Of a DNA stretch of 20,000 bases, positions 3,146-8,446 are shown in pieces; position 1 is the first letter of the stretch; every line of letters starts with the position of its first letter. The notes beneath the pieces are model-generated. The model was not told the DNA's origin. It ran no database searches and worked only from the letters and a program-made list of their open reading frames with translations. The stretch comes from an uncultured virus (IMG/VR IMGVR_UViG_3300042934_000632) (taxonomy: Duplodnaviria; Heunggongvirae; Uroviricota; Caudoviricetes): the IMG/VR virus record IMGVR_UViG_3300042934_000632. One strand, given 5' to 3'. Position numbers and translations under genes: made by a program.

Positions 3146-3406
3146 ATGGATGCTCCAAAATTCAACGTAAGGGATGAGGTTGTTGTCACTTTTCCTGACG
3201 GATCTAGGATCAGAGGGAAAATATATCCTATTCCTGGGGCTTTTTTAAATGAGAAAGGCTACCTCGTGCTATATGAACATACAAGATTTTATATTGAAAA
3301 TGGGAAACGTTATTTCACAAGCGGAGCAAGACACCCTGAGTATATGATCACTTTATTCATAGAGAACAATGACTACTACCACCTTCAACTCGACGACCTG
3401 GAATAG
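3146..3406 (+). CDS. Hypothetical protein (86 aa), possibly an SH3-like beta barrel
   Basis: Starts 1 nt after the previous stop. The N-terminus 'PKFNVRDEVVV...RGKI' is typical of small phage SH3-like proteins (inference). Confidence 0.6.
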   Translation: MDAPKFNVRDEVVVTFPDGSRIRGKIYPIPGAFLNEKGYLVLYEHTRFYIENGKRYFTSGARHPEYMITLFIENNDYYHLQLDDLE

Positions 3407-3412
3407 CAAACA

Positions 3413-3441
3413 TTGCCAAATTCCATGATATGTTATATAAT
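3413..3441 (+). promoter_or_regulatory. Sigma-A-type promoter for the 3D-domain gene
   Basis: TTGCCA (3413-3418), 17 nt, TATAAT (3436-3441), in an intergenic gap. Confidence 0.8.
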
Positions 3442-3515
3442 TCATCTAGTATATGGGTGTGTTTTAAATAGATTGCAATCCTTGAGACGACCAATGAAAT
3501 AAGGAGGACGCATGA

Positions 3516-4292
3516 ATGGGTTCTAAGCATTCAGGGCGAGCCTATCGTTTCCTTGTACCTATTGTGATTATTGTAGTTCTATTAATTGCATGGGGCACTA
3601 GAGAACATAGTCTAAGCCAGAAGCACCAGTCTACGATCTCTTCCCTTAAATCAGAACTAAGTAGCAAGGGTCAGGTTATTGAGAATAAGAATATCCTCAT
3701 TCAGCAGAAACAAGCTGAACTTGATCTCCAGTCTTCGCTGCTGGAACAACAGCAAAAGAAGCTAGACAAAAGACAGGCTATTATCGAGCTGAATATTAAG
3801 GAGGCGCAAGTCTCCGATAATAAGATCGAAGCTCAAAAGAAGACTATCAATCAATTGCAAAAGAAGTTGTCTTCGGAACAGTCCAATACCAGTTTGAAAG
3901 CCAAGCCAACCACTGTAAATGCTACTACAGTCTCGGCAAAAGCATCAGGAAGCTTTCAATCTGGATGGACTGCAACTTACTATTCGCTAAGCGTGGCTTC
4001 CACTGGGAAGAGACCAGGTCACCCTGGCTACGGAATCACGGCTAGCGGACGTAAGGTAGTAGACGGTGTTACGATTGCCGTTGATCCACGATACATTCCT
4101 TTGGGAACTTGGATCGAAATTAAAATGCCTAACGGCGAAGTCATCAAACGAAGAGCCGACGATACAGGCTCCGCCATTAAAGGACATAAGCTAGATATTT
4201 ATGTGGCTGGCGTCAGTGACTCATACATCTATCAAGAACTTGGTAAGAAACAAATCTCTATCCGTATTCTCGGAAAGGGAGAACTGAACTAA
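3516..4292 (+). CDS. Membrane-anchored coiled-coil protein with a C-terminal 3D (Asp-Asp-Asp) domain; YocH/Sps-like peptidoglycan lytic transglycosylase
   Basis: N-terminal hydrophobic helix (FLVPIVIIVVLLIAW), long Q/K/E coiled coil, and 3D-domain motifs TATYY, GITASG, IAVDPRYIPLGT and ADDTGSAIKGHKLDIY. AAGGAGG RBS. Confidence 0.92.
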   Translation: MGSKHSGRAYRFLVPIVIIVVLLIAWGTREHSLSQKHQSTISSLKSELSSKGQVIENKNILIQQKQAELDLQSSLLEQQQKKLDKRQAIIELNIKEAQVSDNKIEAQKKTINQLQKKLSSEQSNTSLKAKPTTVNATTVSAKASGSFQSGWTATYYSLSVASTGKRPGHPGYGITASGRKVVDGVTIAVDPRYIPLGTWIEIKMPNGEVIKRRADDTGSAIKGHKLDIYVAGVSDSYIYQELGKKQISIRILGKGELN

Positions 4293-4324
4293 AAATCTGT
4301 AAAAATATACTAGACGCTCTGGGA

Positions 4325-4354
4325 TTGCGTTACTTTGTACTGCTGCGATATAAT
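4325..4354 (+). promoter_or_regulatory. Sigma-A-type promoter for the candidate sRNA
   Basis: TTGCGT (4325-4330), 18 nt, TATAAT (4349-4354). Confidence 0.6.
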
Positions 4355-4357
4355 GTT

Positions 4358-4450
4358 GGTATAGCGAGAACACACCCTCTCGCTGTGCCGATCTGTGGTT
4401 GCAACCAGCAGAACAGCATCAAGGGTTTCTCACTAGAGAGCCCTTTTTGT
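4358..4450 (+). ncRNA. Candidate ~90-nt small RNA with three hairpins
   Basis: Promoter immediately upstream. Hairpin 1 is a 12-bp stem (4358-4369/4378-4389) with loop ACACACCC. Hairpin 2 spans 4392-4412 around the palindrome TGGTTGCAACCA. A terminator hairpin at 4421-4445 is followed by a T tract. No credible ORF or RBS. Confidence 0.6.
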
Positions 4451-4452
4451 TT
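4421..4452 (+). terminator. Intrinsic terminator
   Basis: AAGGGTTTCTC-ACTA-GAGAGCCCTT hairpin (one bulge, one G-U) running into TTTTTGTTT. Confidence 0.75.
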
Positions 4453-4463
4453 GTAAATTTTTG

Positions 4464-4492
4464 AAGACGTATATAGAAATATAAGGTATAAT
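4464..4492 (+). promoter_or_regulatory. Possible promoter for the brfA-like/rSAM transcription unit
   Basis: Perfect TATAAT at 4487-4492 in an AT-rich gap after a terminator. The -35 is weak (AAGACG at 17-nt spacing). Confidence 0.45.
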
Positions 4493-4525
4493 ACTGTTAC
4501 TACCATAACACGGAGGTTATGAACC

Positions 4526-4708
4526 ATGGCAAAAAGCAGTGCAAGAAAGAAGAGAGAACATAGGGTGCGACAAGGAAAATTAAATCCTGAGAATTCCAGA
4601 GGCAGTTGGAATGGTGTTATGCCTGTGACTAAGGTGAAACCAAACAAGAAAAAAGATCACCGCTTTGGTGATTATGATCGAGCTTACAACATTGTTGTAG
4701 GTTGGTAA
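4526..4708 (+). CDS. brfA: Small basic protein resembling Bacillus ribosome rescue factor BrfA (YqkK)
   Basis: The N-terminus MAKSSARKKREHRVRQGKLNPENSRGS aligns without gaps to B. subtilis BrfA as I recall it (MAKSQAKKKRGHRLRNGGRDVLLSRGS). 60 aa, Lys/Arg-rich, GGAGG RBS at 4512-4516. Confidence 0.7.
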   Translation: MAKSSARKKREHRVRQGKLNPENSRGSWNGVMPVTKVKPNKKKDHRFGDYDRAYNIVVGW

Positions 4709-4733
4709 ATAATCATGAGAGAGGAGACCAACA

Positions 4734-5051
4734 ATGTGGTGTAGAATCATGGAGAACACGGAGAATCCTTCTAATATCTTTGAATTTGAAAGCAACAATG
4801 ATTTAATTGTTCATTATACCGTATCGAAAGAAACAAGCACTCCAGTTGTTGAGATTACAAAGTTAGCTACTATTGAAAATAGACTGGAAACATGTGCTAT
4901 TAGTCTTATCAAAAATGAAATTCAGATCCACCTATATACAGGAGAACAGTTATTCAGAGTTTGCGTAGGTGGAATCAGAAGATTCATGTTGTTTGAGCAT
5001 AATGATACAGTTCATGAACGACTAATTATTGATGTAACGAAAGACTTGTAG
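4734..5051 (+). CDS. Hypothetical protein (105 aa)
   Basis: GAGAGGAG RBS; fills the gap between the brfA-like gene and the repeat protein. No family recognised. Confidence 0.65.
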   Translation: MWCRIMENTENPSNIFEFESNNDLIVHYTVSKETSTPVVEITKLATIENRLETCAISLIKNEIQIHLYTGEQLFRVCVGGIRRFMLFEHNDTVHERLIIDVTKDL

Positions 5052-5062
5052 GAGGAGTAGAA

Positions 5063-5593
5063 ATGGCCGTACCAGGCAGCCTGTGGGTTCAAGGGACCCA
5101 GCTTCGTTTTACGAGTCAAAGCGGAGTCAACTTTGCATATGAAGGTACTTATAGTAGCTCGCCTGCTGGAGCTAAACCAGGCAGCTCATGGATCGAAGGC
5201 GATAACTTCGCTTATATCGACCAGTATGGTTCTAAAAGACTCGTTATTAATTATACTGCTACTAATATTCCCGCCGCAGTTGCAGGCAGCTTATGGATTT
5301 ATGGCAATTATCTTTATTGGATTAACACTAATAAGAATAAAACCTACGGACATGGAGATGCAACTCATCAGAATACAAGCTATAATGATGGTAGTTATAA
5401 CGATTATAATAATTCATCAACATCCCATGGTGATTCTACGGTAACTTTCCAAGATTCGCCGACACATGGTAATCATGTACCCTACCATGCGGACTGGCCT
5501 GCTTCACATACGGATAGCTATAACTATCAAGATACACACAACAATAGCTACCATACGGATACTCCACATGCTGATTATCCTATTCAAGTGTAG
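5063..5593 (+). CDS. Repeat protein and putative radical-SAM substrate: three N-terminal A-x-(P/A)-G-S-x-W repeats plus a C-terminal tail with 14 (H/Y/F)-X-(D/N) motifs
   Basis: AGGAGGAG RBS. N-terminal repeats start at residues 2, 37 and 72 (35-aa period). The tail from His97 contains HGD, HQN, YND, YND, YNN, HGD, FQD, HGN, HAD, HTD, YQD, HNN, HTD and HAD. It lies directly upstream of a SPASM radical SAM gene. Confidence 0.85.
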   Translation: MAVPGSLWVQGTQLRFTSQSGVNFAYEGTYSSSPAGAKPGSSWIEGDNFAYIDQYGSKRLVINYTATNIPAAVAGSLWIYGNYLYWINTNKNKTYGHGDATHQNTSYNDGSYNDYNNSSTSHGDSTVTFQDSPTHGNHVPYHADWPASHTDSYNYQDTHNNSYHTDTPHADYPIQV

Positions 5594-5608
5594 GGAGGAG
5601 AGAACACA

Positions 5609-6829
5609 TTGACAACAGAAGTGAGACCTATGGGTGTTTCGTGTCCTTTAAAATGTGTTTATTGCTATCAAGAACCCCAGAGGGTTGCGGGAAATACTAA
5701 TGCAAAATATGATTTGGCGAAGATGATTCAGGAGATCTCAAAGACTCGAACAAAGAATATTAATTTCTTTGGTGGCGAGATCTTAATGATGCCTATAGAA
5801 GATCTAGAGGTACTGCTGGCTTACGCTCATGTTAAGTTCGGTGGATCAGGTGTTCAAACCAGCGGATCTATCATGAGAGATGAACATATTGAACTCTTCA
5901 AAAAGTACAATGTTCAGCTGGGCTTCTCCATTGACGGTCCTAACGAGCTAAACAGTCTCCGAGTTCCACGCAATCCAAAGACTCCTATTGAAAGTACAAC
6001 GGATAATACAATGAAATATATCAAGCTATCAAAAGAAGCTGGGCTTGATGTAGGCCTTATTATTACCCTTCATAGAGAAAACTCTACTCCAGAACGTATT
6101 CCACGGTTGTTTAATTTTATCAAGTGGTTATGGGATCTTGGTATTCGTAGCGGGAATATTCATACTCTAGAAATTGAATCTACAATGCCGAACCACGACT
6201 TTGTATTGACACAAGAAGAGAACATCTGGGCTTACACCCAACTTGCCGAGTTCTTTAAAACGCTTCCTGACCATGGATGGAATCCTTTCGCAGAGATTAA
6301 AGACTTACTGATGGGTAACGATCAAAAAACTCTTTGTTATTGGCACCGATGCGATCCATTGAATACTCAAGCTGTCCACGGAATCGAAGGTGACGGTGCA
6401 ATCTCTAACTGTGGACGAGCAAATAAAGAAGGAATTGACTGGGTCAAAGCTCCTGATAATTATTATGCAAGATACATCAGCTTCTATCATACGCCTCAAG
6501 ATATGGGTGGCTGTAATGGATGCCGCTTCTGGACAGTATGCGGAGGAAGTTGCCCAGGTGAATCCGATCAGGGGGATTTCAGAAATAAAACAACACATTG
6601 CTCTACTCAGAAAGCAATACTTTCCTATTATGAAAAAGAACTTATTGATGAAGGCAAGCTACCCATTACGACATCGCCTTTGCTTCCTCTTGTTGAACAG
6701 CTCGTTCTTAATGGTCTTGAAAGAGGAGAGAACTTATATCTTAATACTGTTATTTCAATGATTGAAGAGATGAGAACAGAAGTCATCCAACTGGAAGTCG
6801 TAGAGGAGGATATCAATGAAACTACTTGA
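5609..6829 (+). CDS. Radical SAM enzyme with C-terminal SPASM domain (peptide/protein maturase type)
   Basis: CxxxCxxC (CPLKCVYC), FFGGE and SIDGP motifs. The SPASM cysteines are CYWHRC, ISNC, CNGCRFWTVCGGSC and THC. TTG start behind GGGAGGAG. There is no N-terminal RRE/PqqD extension, since the SAM cluster motif starts at residue 12. Confidence 0.95.
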   Translation: MTTEVRPMGVSCPLKCVYCYQEPQRVAGNTNAKYDLAKMIQEISKTRTKNINFFGGEILMMPIEDLEVLLAYAHVKFGGSGVQTSGSIMRDEHIELFKKYNVQLGFSIDGPNELNSLRVPRNPKTPIESTTDNTMKYIKLSKEAGLDVGLIITLHRENSTPERIPRLFNFIKWLWDLGIRSGNIHTLEIESTMPNHDFVLTQEENIWAYTQLAEFFKTLPDHGWNPFAEIKDLLMGNDQKTLCYWHRCDPLNTQAVHGIEGDGAISNCGRANKEGIDWVKAPDNYYARYISFYHTPQDMGGCNGCRFWTVCGGSCPGESDQGDFRNKTTHCSTQKAILSYYEKELIDEGKLPITTSPLLPLVEQLVLNGLERGENLYLNTVISMIEEMRTEVIQLEVVEEDINETT

Positions 6830-7760
6830 TTTTAGTATGCCACCATTTGCAAGAACGGTTTGGGCCTCTCAAGAAATAGAGAAGGAGTGGCGTCCCAAAC
6901 TGGCTTTAGCCTCTCAAGCTTATGAGCGTTTAGAGTATGAAACGGTTGTTCATGGCCTTAGAGCCTGTACAACAGCACATTGTACTCCTGATGATATGGT
7001 TCGTCGGATTCAATTTTATGCAAAGAAAGGTCTTATGTATCATCCCTTACAGCAAGTAGGTGCTTATACAGGGTTCGCTCATACACACCCTCCAGTTATT
7101 CCAGGAAAACCTTGGACCTGGTTCGGTGTTGTAGCTAAAGACCCTCTTGATGCTTACACCTTTGCTGAGGCATCTGCATTGACAGAAGATTCCGCGGGTA
7201 AGGAAATAGATCACTCAACGATTGGCACTCTTCTTGGATACCCTGAATGCTGCCGAAAGTTCTTCACAGATGTATGGGCCGCGGGATATGTTGATCCTGT
7301 ATGGCAACAAGCAGAAAACTGTGAAGGTGAATACGTAGTGAAGAAAGAAGAGCATCTTATTCAGCTAAGCAAGGAGACTCCATGGGAGACTTCACCACTA
7401 CTGAGATACATTGGAGTACGTATCATGCCTCACATTCCATGCTCTCATGATTGTAAACCTTCTCTGGTTATCGCAAGAAGTTGGTTGGATCTTGGTAGAG
7501 AGTTGGCCATACCAGGCATGGAAGAGCTTGAGCAATTTCTTCGGATGCCAGTAGAATGGGATTGCTTGAAGGGGATAGCCTATGTGTCTACTCCAATCTT
7601 CAAGATTGAAACGAATTCCATGACATGTTATCCACGGCATGTTGTTCAAAAGGAAGGAACATTTAGACCAAAGAGTGGAGCAAAAGGACTGAAGTTTCCT
7701 TTTATTCCGCTAGGATCTGATAAGTTTGCTCACCTCTTTGGAGGAGGAAGCGGGTGCTAA
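6816..7760 (+). CDS. Cys/His-rich protein with DUF483-like motifs, probable partner of the radical SAM enzyme
   Basis: Motifs IGTLLGYPECCRKFF and PHIPCSHDC resemble the conserved DUF483 segments LGYPxCC and PCSxxC (recalled, not searched). It overlaps the rSAM gene by 14 nt and has a GAGGAGG RBS. Confidence 0.7.
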   Translation: MKLLDFSMPPFARTVWASQEIEKEWRPKLALASQAYERLEYETVVHGLRACTTAHCTPDDMVRRIQFYAKKGLMYHPLQQVGAYTGFAHTHPPVIPGKPWTWFGVVAKDPLDAYTFAEASALTEDSAGKEIDHSTIGTLLGYPECCRKFFTDVWAAGYVDPVWQQAENCEGEYVVKKEEHLIQLSKETPWETSPLLRYIGVRIMPHIPCSHDCKPSLVIARSWLDLGRELAIPGMEELEQFLRMPVEWDCLKGIAYVSTPIFKIETNSMTCYPRHVVQKEGTFRPKSGAKGLKFPFIPLGSDKFAHLFGGGSGC

Positions 7761-7763
7761 TTC

Positions 7764-8009
7764 ATGTTTAAACAACGTTTATGGGATTGCCTTTTGGCAG
7801 TCCTTTCTTTTATTGTAGCAATAGTATTAATCATTGGTATAGCTTTTCTAGCTGTTTTCTTGTCAGACATCTATTGGTTTAAGATACTTGTAAGTACTGT
7901 TGTTATTCTTATCTTGTCCTTCGTTGTTATTATCGCTCTTTCACTGTTTGTTAACTGGCTGTTTATTGAACCATACAAACATTGGAAAGAAGAAAATAAA
8001 AACAGATAG
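7764..8009 (+). CDS. Small membrane protein with two predicted TM helices
   Basis: Two long hydrophobic stretches (about residues 9-33 and 41-67) and a charged C-terminal tail. GGAGGAGG RBS, 3 nt after the previous stop. Confidence 0.75.
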   Translation: MFKQRLWDCLLAVLSFIVAIVLIIGIAFLAVFLSDIYWFKILVSTVVILILSFVVIIALSLFVNWLFIEPYKHWKEENKNR

Positions 8010-8023
8010 ATCAAAGATGATCC

Positions 8024-8052
8024 TTGCCAAAATTTGTATTCTGTATTAAAAT
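8024..8052 (+). promoter_or_regulatory. Sigma-A-type promoter
   Basis: TTGCCA (8024-8029), 17 nt, TAAAAT (8047-8052). Confidence 0.7.
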
Positions 8053-8116
8053 GGTAATTATTACAGGACCTATAAGTTTCGTAGTTCCTAGTGATTAAAT
8101 TCACTAAGATGAAGGG

Positions 8117-8446
8117 ATGTTGATGAGATTGAGTTCGCAAAATGTAAGTAATGCTTTTATGACGTTCATGAAAGAGGCTCCTAAACAATACGAAGCTTGG
8201 CAAGAAATGATTATGAAACTTGACGTAGCAAGCGCACTTGTCAATAAGACAGAGGAGCTTGCCTATATTTCAGTTCTTGCCGCTGTTAGACTAGAAAGCG
8301 GTTTGGAGTTCCATGTAAAACAAGCAAAATCTTTTGGAGCTACGCGGGATGAAATCATTAGTGCAATTCTATTACCACTTCCCGCTGTTGGTAATGTAGC
8401 CATTCAATCTCTACCAATCGCATTACAAGCTTACGATGTGTCATAA
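8117..8446 (+). CDS. Carboxymuconolactone decarboxylase (CMD/AhpD-like) family protein lacking CxxC
   Basis: KTEELAYISVLAAVRLESGLEFHVKQAKSFGATRDEIISAIL matches the CMD family pattern (L..k..ELi.ia......l..H...A...GaT.eEI). The true start may be ATG 8123. Confidence 0.85.
   Translation: MLMRLSSQNVSNAFMTFMKEAPKQYEAWQEMIMKLDVASALVNKTEELAYISVLAAVRLESGLEFHVKQAKSFGATRDEIISAILLPLPAVGNVAIQSLPIALQAYDVS

Follow-up and report, generated by a model that had tools for sequence, protein, structure and literature searches.

The closest described counterparts of the gene analyzed here are BrfA (YqkK) of Bacillus subtilis and ArfA (PF03889) of Escherichia coli, small basic proteins that work in the same way, by recruiting RF2 to non-stop ribosomes. 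The report on BrfA (PMC6881298) describes a protein of 71-72 residues whose active form has 62. Its helix alpha1 (residues 4-17) lies on h44 and H71, and Arg25, which every BrfA sequence retains, stacks on U1915 of H69. Residues 30-40, with strand beta1 at 35-38, make up the central RF2-binding segment; Phe31 stacks on the Trp of the RF2 switch loop, and His34 and Arg36 stack on A1492. The basic tail lies in the mRNA channel, where Lys49-His50 contacts U534. According to the same text, the pairing of BrfA with RF2 is species-specific, and ArfA is without the N-terminal helices of BrfA.

The expression of these factors has a design of its own. In that report (PMC6881298), brfA is stated to carry an intrinsic terminator inside its reading frame, so that a non-stop mRNA is made, and arfA is stated to give a non-stop mRNA through RNase III cleavage of a 3' hairpin and/or through termination. 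BrfA is there limited to a subset of the Bacillaceae, and another published statement places it in 10 species of the B. subtilis group. ArfA has been annotated in a phage, as g10 of Citromicrobium phage RXM (PMC8953757), and the idea of a phage-carried rescue factor is already in print as an annotation in Gram-negative systems. A search of the full-text literature outside subscription journals found neither a phage-encoded BrfA nor a wide BrfA family.

The phage and its probable host

The window, by which we mean the whole stretch of 20,000 nucleotides that was analyzed, corresponds to positions 27800-47799 of a 251,543-bp virus record that is rated complete, has a G+C content of 42% and contains essentially no tRNA or tmRNA genes. 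A first-pass annotation, made from the letters of the window, had called the gene of interest phage-borne, and the complete record bears this out, with genes for capsid, portal, terminase, baseplate, holin and endolysin (an amidase). The carrier is a jumbo phage of 251.5 kb known from soil metagenomes; its DNA is present in three soil-metagenome runs, with no RNA run among them. The window region is a block of nucleotide metabolism and replication, with genes for a dUTPase, a DnaG-type primase, a dNMP kinase, a thymidine kinase and an SNF2 helicase. By the helicase, the nearest named phages are Bacillus phage vB_BauM_KLEB27-3 (56% identity) and Edson and WH1 (42%), and a megablast search with 3.3 kb of the phage against a named phage collection returned nothing.

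The host is probably a soil member of the Bacillales, of a Paenibacillus-, Brevibacillus- or Bacillus-like kind, since the closest named relatives of the endolysin are Brevibacillus amidases (38-48% identity), those of the BrfA-like protein are chromosomal Paenibacillus proteins (50-63% identity), and the phage DNA is found in soil.

The gene and its surroundings

The basic 60-residue reading frame described in the first-pass annotation at 4526-4708, and the N-terminus quoted for it, were both found in the DNA. The protein contains 16 Lys or Arg and 5 Asp or Glu residues, for a net charge of about +11. The features of the locus, in positions of the window, are the following.

4421..4452, plus strand: terminator-like hairpin and U-run, from a fold of 4318-4460 (hairpin 4421-4445, then TTTTTGTTT)
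4487..4492, plus strand: TATAAT box, a weak possible -10 element; no canonical -35 (TTGAAG 20 nt upstream)
4512..4516, plus strand: ribosome-binding site GGAGG, with the ATG 9 nt further 3'
4526..4708, plus strand: reading frame of the BrfA-like protein, 60 aa
4526..4645, plus strand: BrfA-homologous part, residues 1-40, with basic helix alpha1 (about 5-15), Arg25-Gly-Ser, invariant Trp28 and Pro33
4631..4663, plus strand: basic tail K36-R46 (KVKPNKKKDHR), by its sequence a candidate mRNA-channel probe
4655..4729, plus strand: long imperfect hairpin spanning codons 44-60, the stop codon and the ribosome-binding site of the next gene
4706..4708, plus strand: TAA stop codon, 108 nt after the Arg codon; it falls in an internal loop of the hairpin's 3' side and is unpaired there
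4734..5051, plus strand: downstream 105-aa reading frame of no known family, with ribosome-binding site AGGAG at 4722-4726

Upstream, a gene for a 3D-domain protein ends at 4292, and the terminator-like hairpin at 4421-4452 would end its transcript, which suggests that the BrfA-like gene opens a new transcription unit. A sigma-70 promoter scan called no site at the TATAAT box. The intergenic stretch 4336-4415 can itself form a long hairpin, with a 15-bp stem at 4355-4392 inside an outer stem (fold of 4318-4460, dG -51.5, z -4.88); Rfam at E<=1 finds nothing within it, and over 3400-5800 gives one sub-threshold chance match only.

Downstream, the ribosome-binding site of the 105-aa frame is built into the base of the 3' hairpin, and this gene is therefore probably co-transcribed with the BrfA-like gene. 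Beyond it lies a cluster at 5063-8446 that may be a peptide- or nucleotide-modification module; it encodes a 176-aa protein in which a G-S-L-W-x-x-G motif recurs and whose end is rich in His, Tyr and Asn, a radical-SAM enzyme (5609-6829), a 314-aa protein that matches DUF483 weakly, a small membrane protein and a CMD-family protein.

Homology to BrfA

The N-terminus of BrfA that was cited in the first reading of the DNA consists of the same residues that HMMER prints for chain y of PDB entry 6SZS ('Uncharacterized protein YqkK'). This chain is the sole phmmer match of the phage protein in the PDB at E<=10, with an E value of 0.036 and 17.7 bits over residues 1-42 of both proteins, and taken alone this single-sequence match is suggestive only. 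A match of that weakness is also what might be expected if the gene product were some small basic protein that binds nucleic acids, is unrelated to BrfA and looks like it only because its N-terminus is rich in Lys and Arg; basic low-complexity helices match easily, and a Foldseek search of the predicted structure against the PDB gave 0 matches, as expected for a short extended peptide.

The behavior of the family as a whole makes such a compositional artefact highly improbable. A HMMER search of 1.84 billion (1.84e9) representatives returned 45 proteins at E<=1e-3. One of them is the query and another a spurious repeat protein of 511 aa; removal of the latter left an alignment of 44 sequences (43 relatives and the query). 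The best relatives share 50-67% identity with the phage protein, none higher among those found. Run against the PDB, the 44-sequence profile finds 6SZS_y at E 8.1e-9 over residues 1-66 of the 71 in the chain, essentially a full-length match, and only one other sequence at E<=10 (E 1.5); a profile of the short subgroup, made from the nine closest short relatives, finds it at E 1.4e-4, with the next match at 0.61. The identities with BrfA are specific to position (M1-A-K-S, K8, R10, H12-R13, R15, G17 and S24-R25-G26-S27) rather than a general likeness of basic residues.

An independent alignment was made from nine brfA-type genes of sampled Bacilli genomes, one of which lies between a malic-enzyme gene and spoIIM plus fur, presumably the setting of yqkK in B. 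subtilis. The profile of these nine orthologues finds 6SZS_y at E 1.4e-22, and hhalign aligns the short group with them at a probability of 98% and E 2.5e-13 over columns 1-40. With three profile results and the hhalign comparison to an independently built orthologue set, the homology of residues 1-40 of the phage protein to BrfA is established at the level of sequence profiles. The relationship had been proposed in the first-pass annotation with a profile search as its check, and the values for the family (8.1e-9), the short subgroup (1.4e-4) and hhalign uphold it.

Other searches with the phage protein added little. Pfam gives no family at E<=10, ArfA PF03889 included, NCBIfam gives no match and PHROGs no usable match (one PHROG at E 1.2). 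The Pfam and NCBIfam blanks are uninformative because true brfA orthologues are blank too: NCBIfam has nothing meaningful for 9/9 brfA-type orthologues and Pfam nothing for 44/44 family members, and there appears to be no curated BrfA model in either collection. A word-indexed protein search returned the phage protein itself only, and a single-sequence search of viral contigs returned no relative. When the reading frame was compared by tblastn with 50,697 named phage records, four were returned at E<=10; these are phage G and Brochothrix phage A9, with two entries for each. The nearest clusters in the ESM Atlas score 0.91, and the viral label on two of them is a lead only.

Residues that are kept and residues that are changed

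Across the 44-sequence alignment W28 and P33 are invariant (44/44), and M1, S4, K8, P21 and R25 occur in at least 90% of the members. Residues 1-17 of the phage protein align with BrfA free of gaps and almost position for position, and an AF2 monomer model (pLDDT 74.5 overall) places a helix at residues 5-15 with a pLDDT of about 90, to be compared with residues 4-17 for alpha1 of BrfA. By alignment and model, then, helix alpha1 is kept in the phage protein. R25, within S24-R25-G26-S27, has the identical position to Arg25 of BrfA.

The central segment of the phage protein reads W28-N-G-V-M-P33-V-T-K36, and equivalents of Phe31, His34 and Arg36 of BrfA are not conserved in the HMMER alignments of the phage protein or the family profile to 6SZS_y. 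A three-residue shift of the alignment, made by eye, would put W28 on Phe31 and T35-K36 on Thr38-Lys39. In the tail, K36, K38, K41-43, H45 and R46 are basic, with Asp44-His45 where BrfA has Lys49-His50; the Lys-His motif of the BrfA tail is absent from the phage protein, while K-H-K is present in long-type relatives and in gp498 of phage G. The last 20 residues give no alignment with BrfA, the hhalign comparison ending at column 40. As far as the sequence goes, two defining features of BrfA, the Lys-His motif and the internal terminator (see below), are lacking in their known form.

A wide family on bacterial chromosomes

The core motif R-G-S-W-N-G-[VI]-x-P-[IVL] was scanned for in one genome per species, which gave 127 stretches, of which 83 were confirmed as relatives and fall in 60 loci. 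The loci belong to Paenibacillus, Peribacillus, Brevibacillus and Bacillales MAGs, and to many Clostridia, where the proteins have a shorter N-terminus of another kind. Matches to the family profile were obtained in 51 of 401 evenly sampled Bacilli genomes, nearly always in single copy, and in 2 of 301 Clostridia genomes, the centre genome being one of the two, a count for which the Bacilli-type profile is probably too narrow to give a frequency. By these matches the BrfA-like family is far wider than the published range of BrfA. The short-type genes of Paenibacillus (loci L017-L021) have a conserved HlyD-MFS / DUF2087-MFS synteny in four of the five loci, which argues that they are host genes and not prophage cargo.

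A terminator scan of the 60 chromosomal loci with the RGSWNG core found a strong hairpin followed by a T-run inside the reading frame in 19 of them, with dG values of -13 to -27.5 and always 100-128 nt after the Arg codon. These predicted in-frame terminators are the non-stop design of brfA and arfA, and the loci that carry them are candidate non-stop-regulated rescue factors well outside the published range of BrfA. They occur in Paenibacillus, Brevibacillus and Peribacillus, and in many Oscillospiraceae and other Clostridia.

The 3' hairpin and the stop codon

The plus-strand hairpin at 4655-4729 of the phage gene has an inner stem of 4681-4690 with 4694-4703 and a middle stem of 4668-4675 with 4709-4716. 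The fold of 4652-4732 has a dG of -29.6 kcal/mol and a z score of -5.98, with 0 of 200 shuffles as good, and across the whole phage genome 50 of 18,628 81-nt windows (0.27%) fold as well. No intrinsic terminator was found inside the phage reading frame, and the tail after the hairpin has 0 T. A weak terminator-like site lies on the minus strand inside the reading frame, at 4656-4672, where a 6-bp stem is followed by CTTTTTTCTT; it competes with the 5' part of the long plus-strand hairpin. The notion that the phage gene is an always-on, pre-truncated version was dropped once the hairpin at the stop codon had been seen.

In each of the five nearest Paenibacillus relatives, a near-perfect hairpin of about 27 bp (dG -41 to -51) surrounds or precedes the stop codon, and its 5' arm encodes a conserved K-N-D-D-D-R-G-F-K. 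The stop codon is inside the hairpin at three of these loci and beyond it at two, one of the latter with a T-run. The 5' arm of the phage hairpin aligns with the Paenibacillus arms at the DNA level and is, by this alignment, their homologue. Four of 27 consensus pairs are changed on both sides, a count of low power given six sequences of which five are close kin. In gp498 of phage G, the hairpin continues into TTTTT, and the TAG stop codon follows at once.

A generic measure, the best hairpin near the stop codon in 45 family genes, was tried as family-wide evidence and failed its control: 22 control regions averaged -21.2 kcal/mol, 13 of the 22 reached -17.9 or lower, and most family loci were not separated from them. 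The hairpin evidence is limited to the phage gene, the five Paenibacillus loci, gp498 of phage G and the terminator scan.

By analogy with arfA, a hairpin that engulfs the stop codon might be cut by RNase III to leave a non-stop message. We regard this as possible if rather doubtful, and the hairpin could equally stabilize the transcript or couple the translation of the next gene.

Mobile carriers and mini forms

When the family profile was run on five records, members were found in three of them. Bacillus phage G carries one as gp498 (AEO93756.1; E 3.3e-17), which has that label as its sole annotation and is of the long type with K-H-K. A short-type member (E 4.7e-21) is found in an IMG/VR record of 157,825 bp that is classed as a provirus; its neighbors there are a T4SS coupling protein, a replication-relaxation protein and a DUF932 protein, a setting that speaks for a conjugative-type element and against a phage. 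The third, gp170 of Brochothrix phage A9, is a 43-aa protein without the N-terminal helix that matches profile positions 20-57 at E 5e-6. The A9 gene (1519-1650 of its locus) is directly upstream of gp171, annotated 'putative toxin-antitoxin system'.

A motif scan gave a further 17 IMG/VR loci and at least 120 metagenome loci. Among the matches listed, most reading frames are mini forms of about 50 aa, of the type R-G-D-W-G..P-V-T-K-V-I-P-N-K-K-K..K-H-K-G, which are very common in gut and rumen viral contigs and share the central motif of the phage family together with Lys-His-Lys. The window-family profile matches 130 of the 137 motif-picked frames among the matches listed at E<=1e-3, a result made partly circular by their selection on the motif, and the true-BrfA profile matches 0 of the same 137. 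By sequence, the tie of the mini forms to BrfA is transitive only. Some copies have long acidic tails rich in Asp, Tyr and Glu.

The distribution among phages bears on whether the gene is simply a passenger, that is, a recent capture from a Paenibacillus- or Brevibacillus-like host, taken together with its 3' hairpin, that has little or no selected role. Its nearest named relatives are indeed the chromosomal Paenibacillus proteins at 50-63% identity, the region of the 3' hairpin aligns with Paenibacillus at the DNA level, and a search with the family profile found the gene in neither of the two closest named phages, KLEB27-3 and Edson. The gene has nevertheless an intact frame and a good ribosome-binding site, and its identity of only 50-67% to any relative found argues that the capture was not recent. 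Furthermore, the hairpin has been remodeled, with the four changed pairs described above, and yet is still strong, and phage G and the IMG/VR record carry members independently. We therefore consider a passenger origin distinctly unlikely.

Genes for RNA repair and counter-defence

The rest of the phage genome gives some idea of the conditions under which the gene would act. Beyond the scanned part of the window, 227 reading frames of 100 aa or more were listed, and a phage-wide scan covered 216 of them; it omitted 7 large frames of the structural region, 4 small overlapping frames and 3 giant border-crossing frames. At phage positions 241564-243786 is a 741-aa fusion of Pnk (AAA_33), a metallophosphatase and a T4-type RNA ligase 1 (Rnl1), which by its domains is a one-protein tRNA/RNA repair enzyme. 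A cREC (cyclic-phosphate-processing receiver) protein adjoins a Nudt16-like NUDIX hydrolase at 213866-215015, a homologue of the anti-Pycsar protein Apyc1 (E 1.6e-62) is encoded at 226188-226961, and the phage also encodes a PIN-PhoH protein. Among the frames scanned there is no RF-1-domain protein, Pth, RtcB, RNase III or SmpB, and tmRNA is likewise absent. The RNA-repair fusion, the cREC/Nudt16-like pair, PIN-PhoH and Apyc1 argue that the phage is equipped against RNA-directed defence. It is plausible that a phage able to repair cut RNA would make use of a factor for clearing ribosomes off cut mRNAs, although this argument is circumstantial.

A proposed role in ribosome rescue

On balance, and with moderate confidence, we read the phage gene as a divergent phage-borne member of the BrfA (YqkK) family that acts as a release-factor-dependent rescue factor, so that the phage probably supplies a ribosome-rescue helper of its own. 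The protein would bind ribosomes with an empty A site and an empty mRNA channel, stalled at the 3' ends of cut or truncated mRNAs. Its N-terminal helix region would be the counterpart of the part of BrfA that binds h44 and H71, with Arg25 the counterpart of the residue that stacks on U1915. The W28-N-G-V-x-P33-V-T-K segment would recruit the host RF2, and the basic tail K36-R46 would probe the empty mRNA channel. Hydrolysis of the peptidyl-tRNA would then free the ribosome for phage translation. If the hairpin were indeed cut by RNase III, the factor would accumulate only when the tmRNA system of the host is saturated. The purpose may be to recycle ribosomes on mRNAs that are cut during takeover or by RNase-based defence, which fits the RNA-repair and counter-defence genes.

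The same features could be read in terms of a protein that binds the ribosome and does not rescue it. Such a protein would keep the N-terminal part of BrfA that docks on the ribosome, with its center and tail changed. It would sit in the decoding center of stalled or vacant ribosomes and block tmRNA-SmpB, the host BrfA or RF2, and would thereby shield phage products from tagging or aid the shutdown of host translation. The alignment with BrfA covers residues 1-40 only, the residues that contact RF2 and A1492 are changed along with the Lys-His motif, and the phage is rich in host-conflict genes, all of which would suit a blocking role. The changed segment, W28..P33-V-T-K, is however the most conserved part of the protein family-wide (with W28 and P33 in 44/44) and not a peculiarity of the phage. 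The family moreover includes single-copy syntenic chromosomal genes, and genes with the non-stop terminator design that is typical of rescue factors, and it is B. subtilis BrfA that looks like the divergent member. A non-rescuing binder is thus unlikely, and we retain the release-factor-dependent rescue factor as the preferred reading.

A broader reading is put forward tentatively, as having a little less than an even chance of being correct. BrfA may be a single divergent branch within a large superfamily of rescue peptides that recruit release factors, spread over Bacilli and some Clostridia and repeatedly taken up by mobile elements. Those elements would include this jumbo phage, phage G, the conjugative-type element and the many gut and rumen viral contigs with mini forms of about 50 aa. 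Phages would then routinely bring a factor of their own, wired through a 3' hairpin or terminator to exhaustion of the host tmRNA. If this is true, ribosomes would stay available at times when takeover or RNase-based defence fills the cell with mRNA fragments.

The phage gene ties BrfA to a much larger family, found in 51 of 401 sampled Bacilli genomes, in phages and in other mobile elements. Should the phage protein prove active, viruses of Gram-positive bacteria would be supplying ribosome rescue as a resource of their own, and a translation-level layer would be added to phage-host conflict beside tRNA repair. The natural variation within the family can also be used like an existing set of mutants to map the parts of BrfA that matter, with the N-terminal helix and Arg25 kept, the RF2-contact segment replaced, and three designs of the 3' end.

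Comparison with known systems

The phage protein resembles BrfA of B. subtilis (6SZS_y) in its small size, its M-A-K-S start, its basic alpha1, G17 and S24-R25-G26-S27, and in having a basic stretch after the central segment and a strongly structured 3' end of the gene. The two differ in the center, which is T-P-S-F-S-T-H-G-R-M-T-K in BrfA and W-N-G-V-x-P-V-T-K in the phage protein, and in the tail, where the phage protein is without the Lys-His motif and its last 20 residues cannot be aligned. The stop codon of the phage gene is inside a hairpin that has no T-run, whereas brfA has its terminator within the reading frame. Finally, BrfA is chromosomal, and the phage-carried gene is a predicted rescue factor.

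The ArfA of E. coli is comparable to the BrfA type in its way of working. It has no sequence relationship to the phage protein (no Pfam match at E<=10), and its hosts are Gram-negative.

The gp498 protein of phage G is likewise phage-borne, with an M-A-K-S start and an Arg-Gly core. It differs from the phage protein described here in its length of 69 aa, which makes it of the long type, in having T-P-T...K-H-K-K as in the BrfA-type proteins of hosts, and in its terminator-like hairpin.

Among named relatives, the closest likeness is to the Paenibacillus genes of loci L017-L021, whose products are annotated as 'hypothetical proteins'. They show 50-63% identity and the same length class, their tail reads K-P-(N/D)-K-(K/R)-K, and they share a (D/Y)-D-R motif that is encoded by the 5' arm of a hairpin around the stop codon. 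Unlike the phage gene, these are host genes, and their hairpins are much longer and near-perfect, at -41 to -51 as compared with -28 to -30 for the phage; at L018 a T-run follows the hairpin, and the reading frame reads through.
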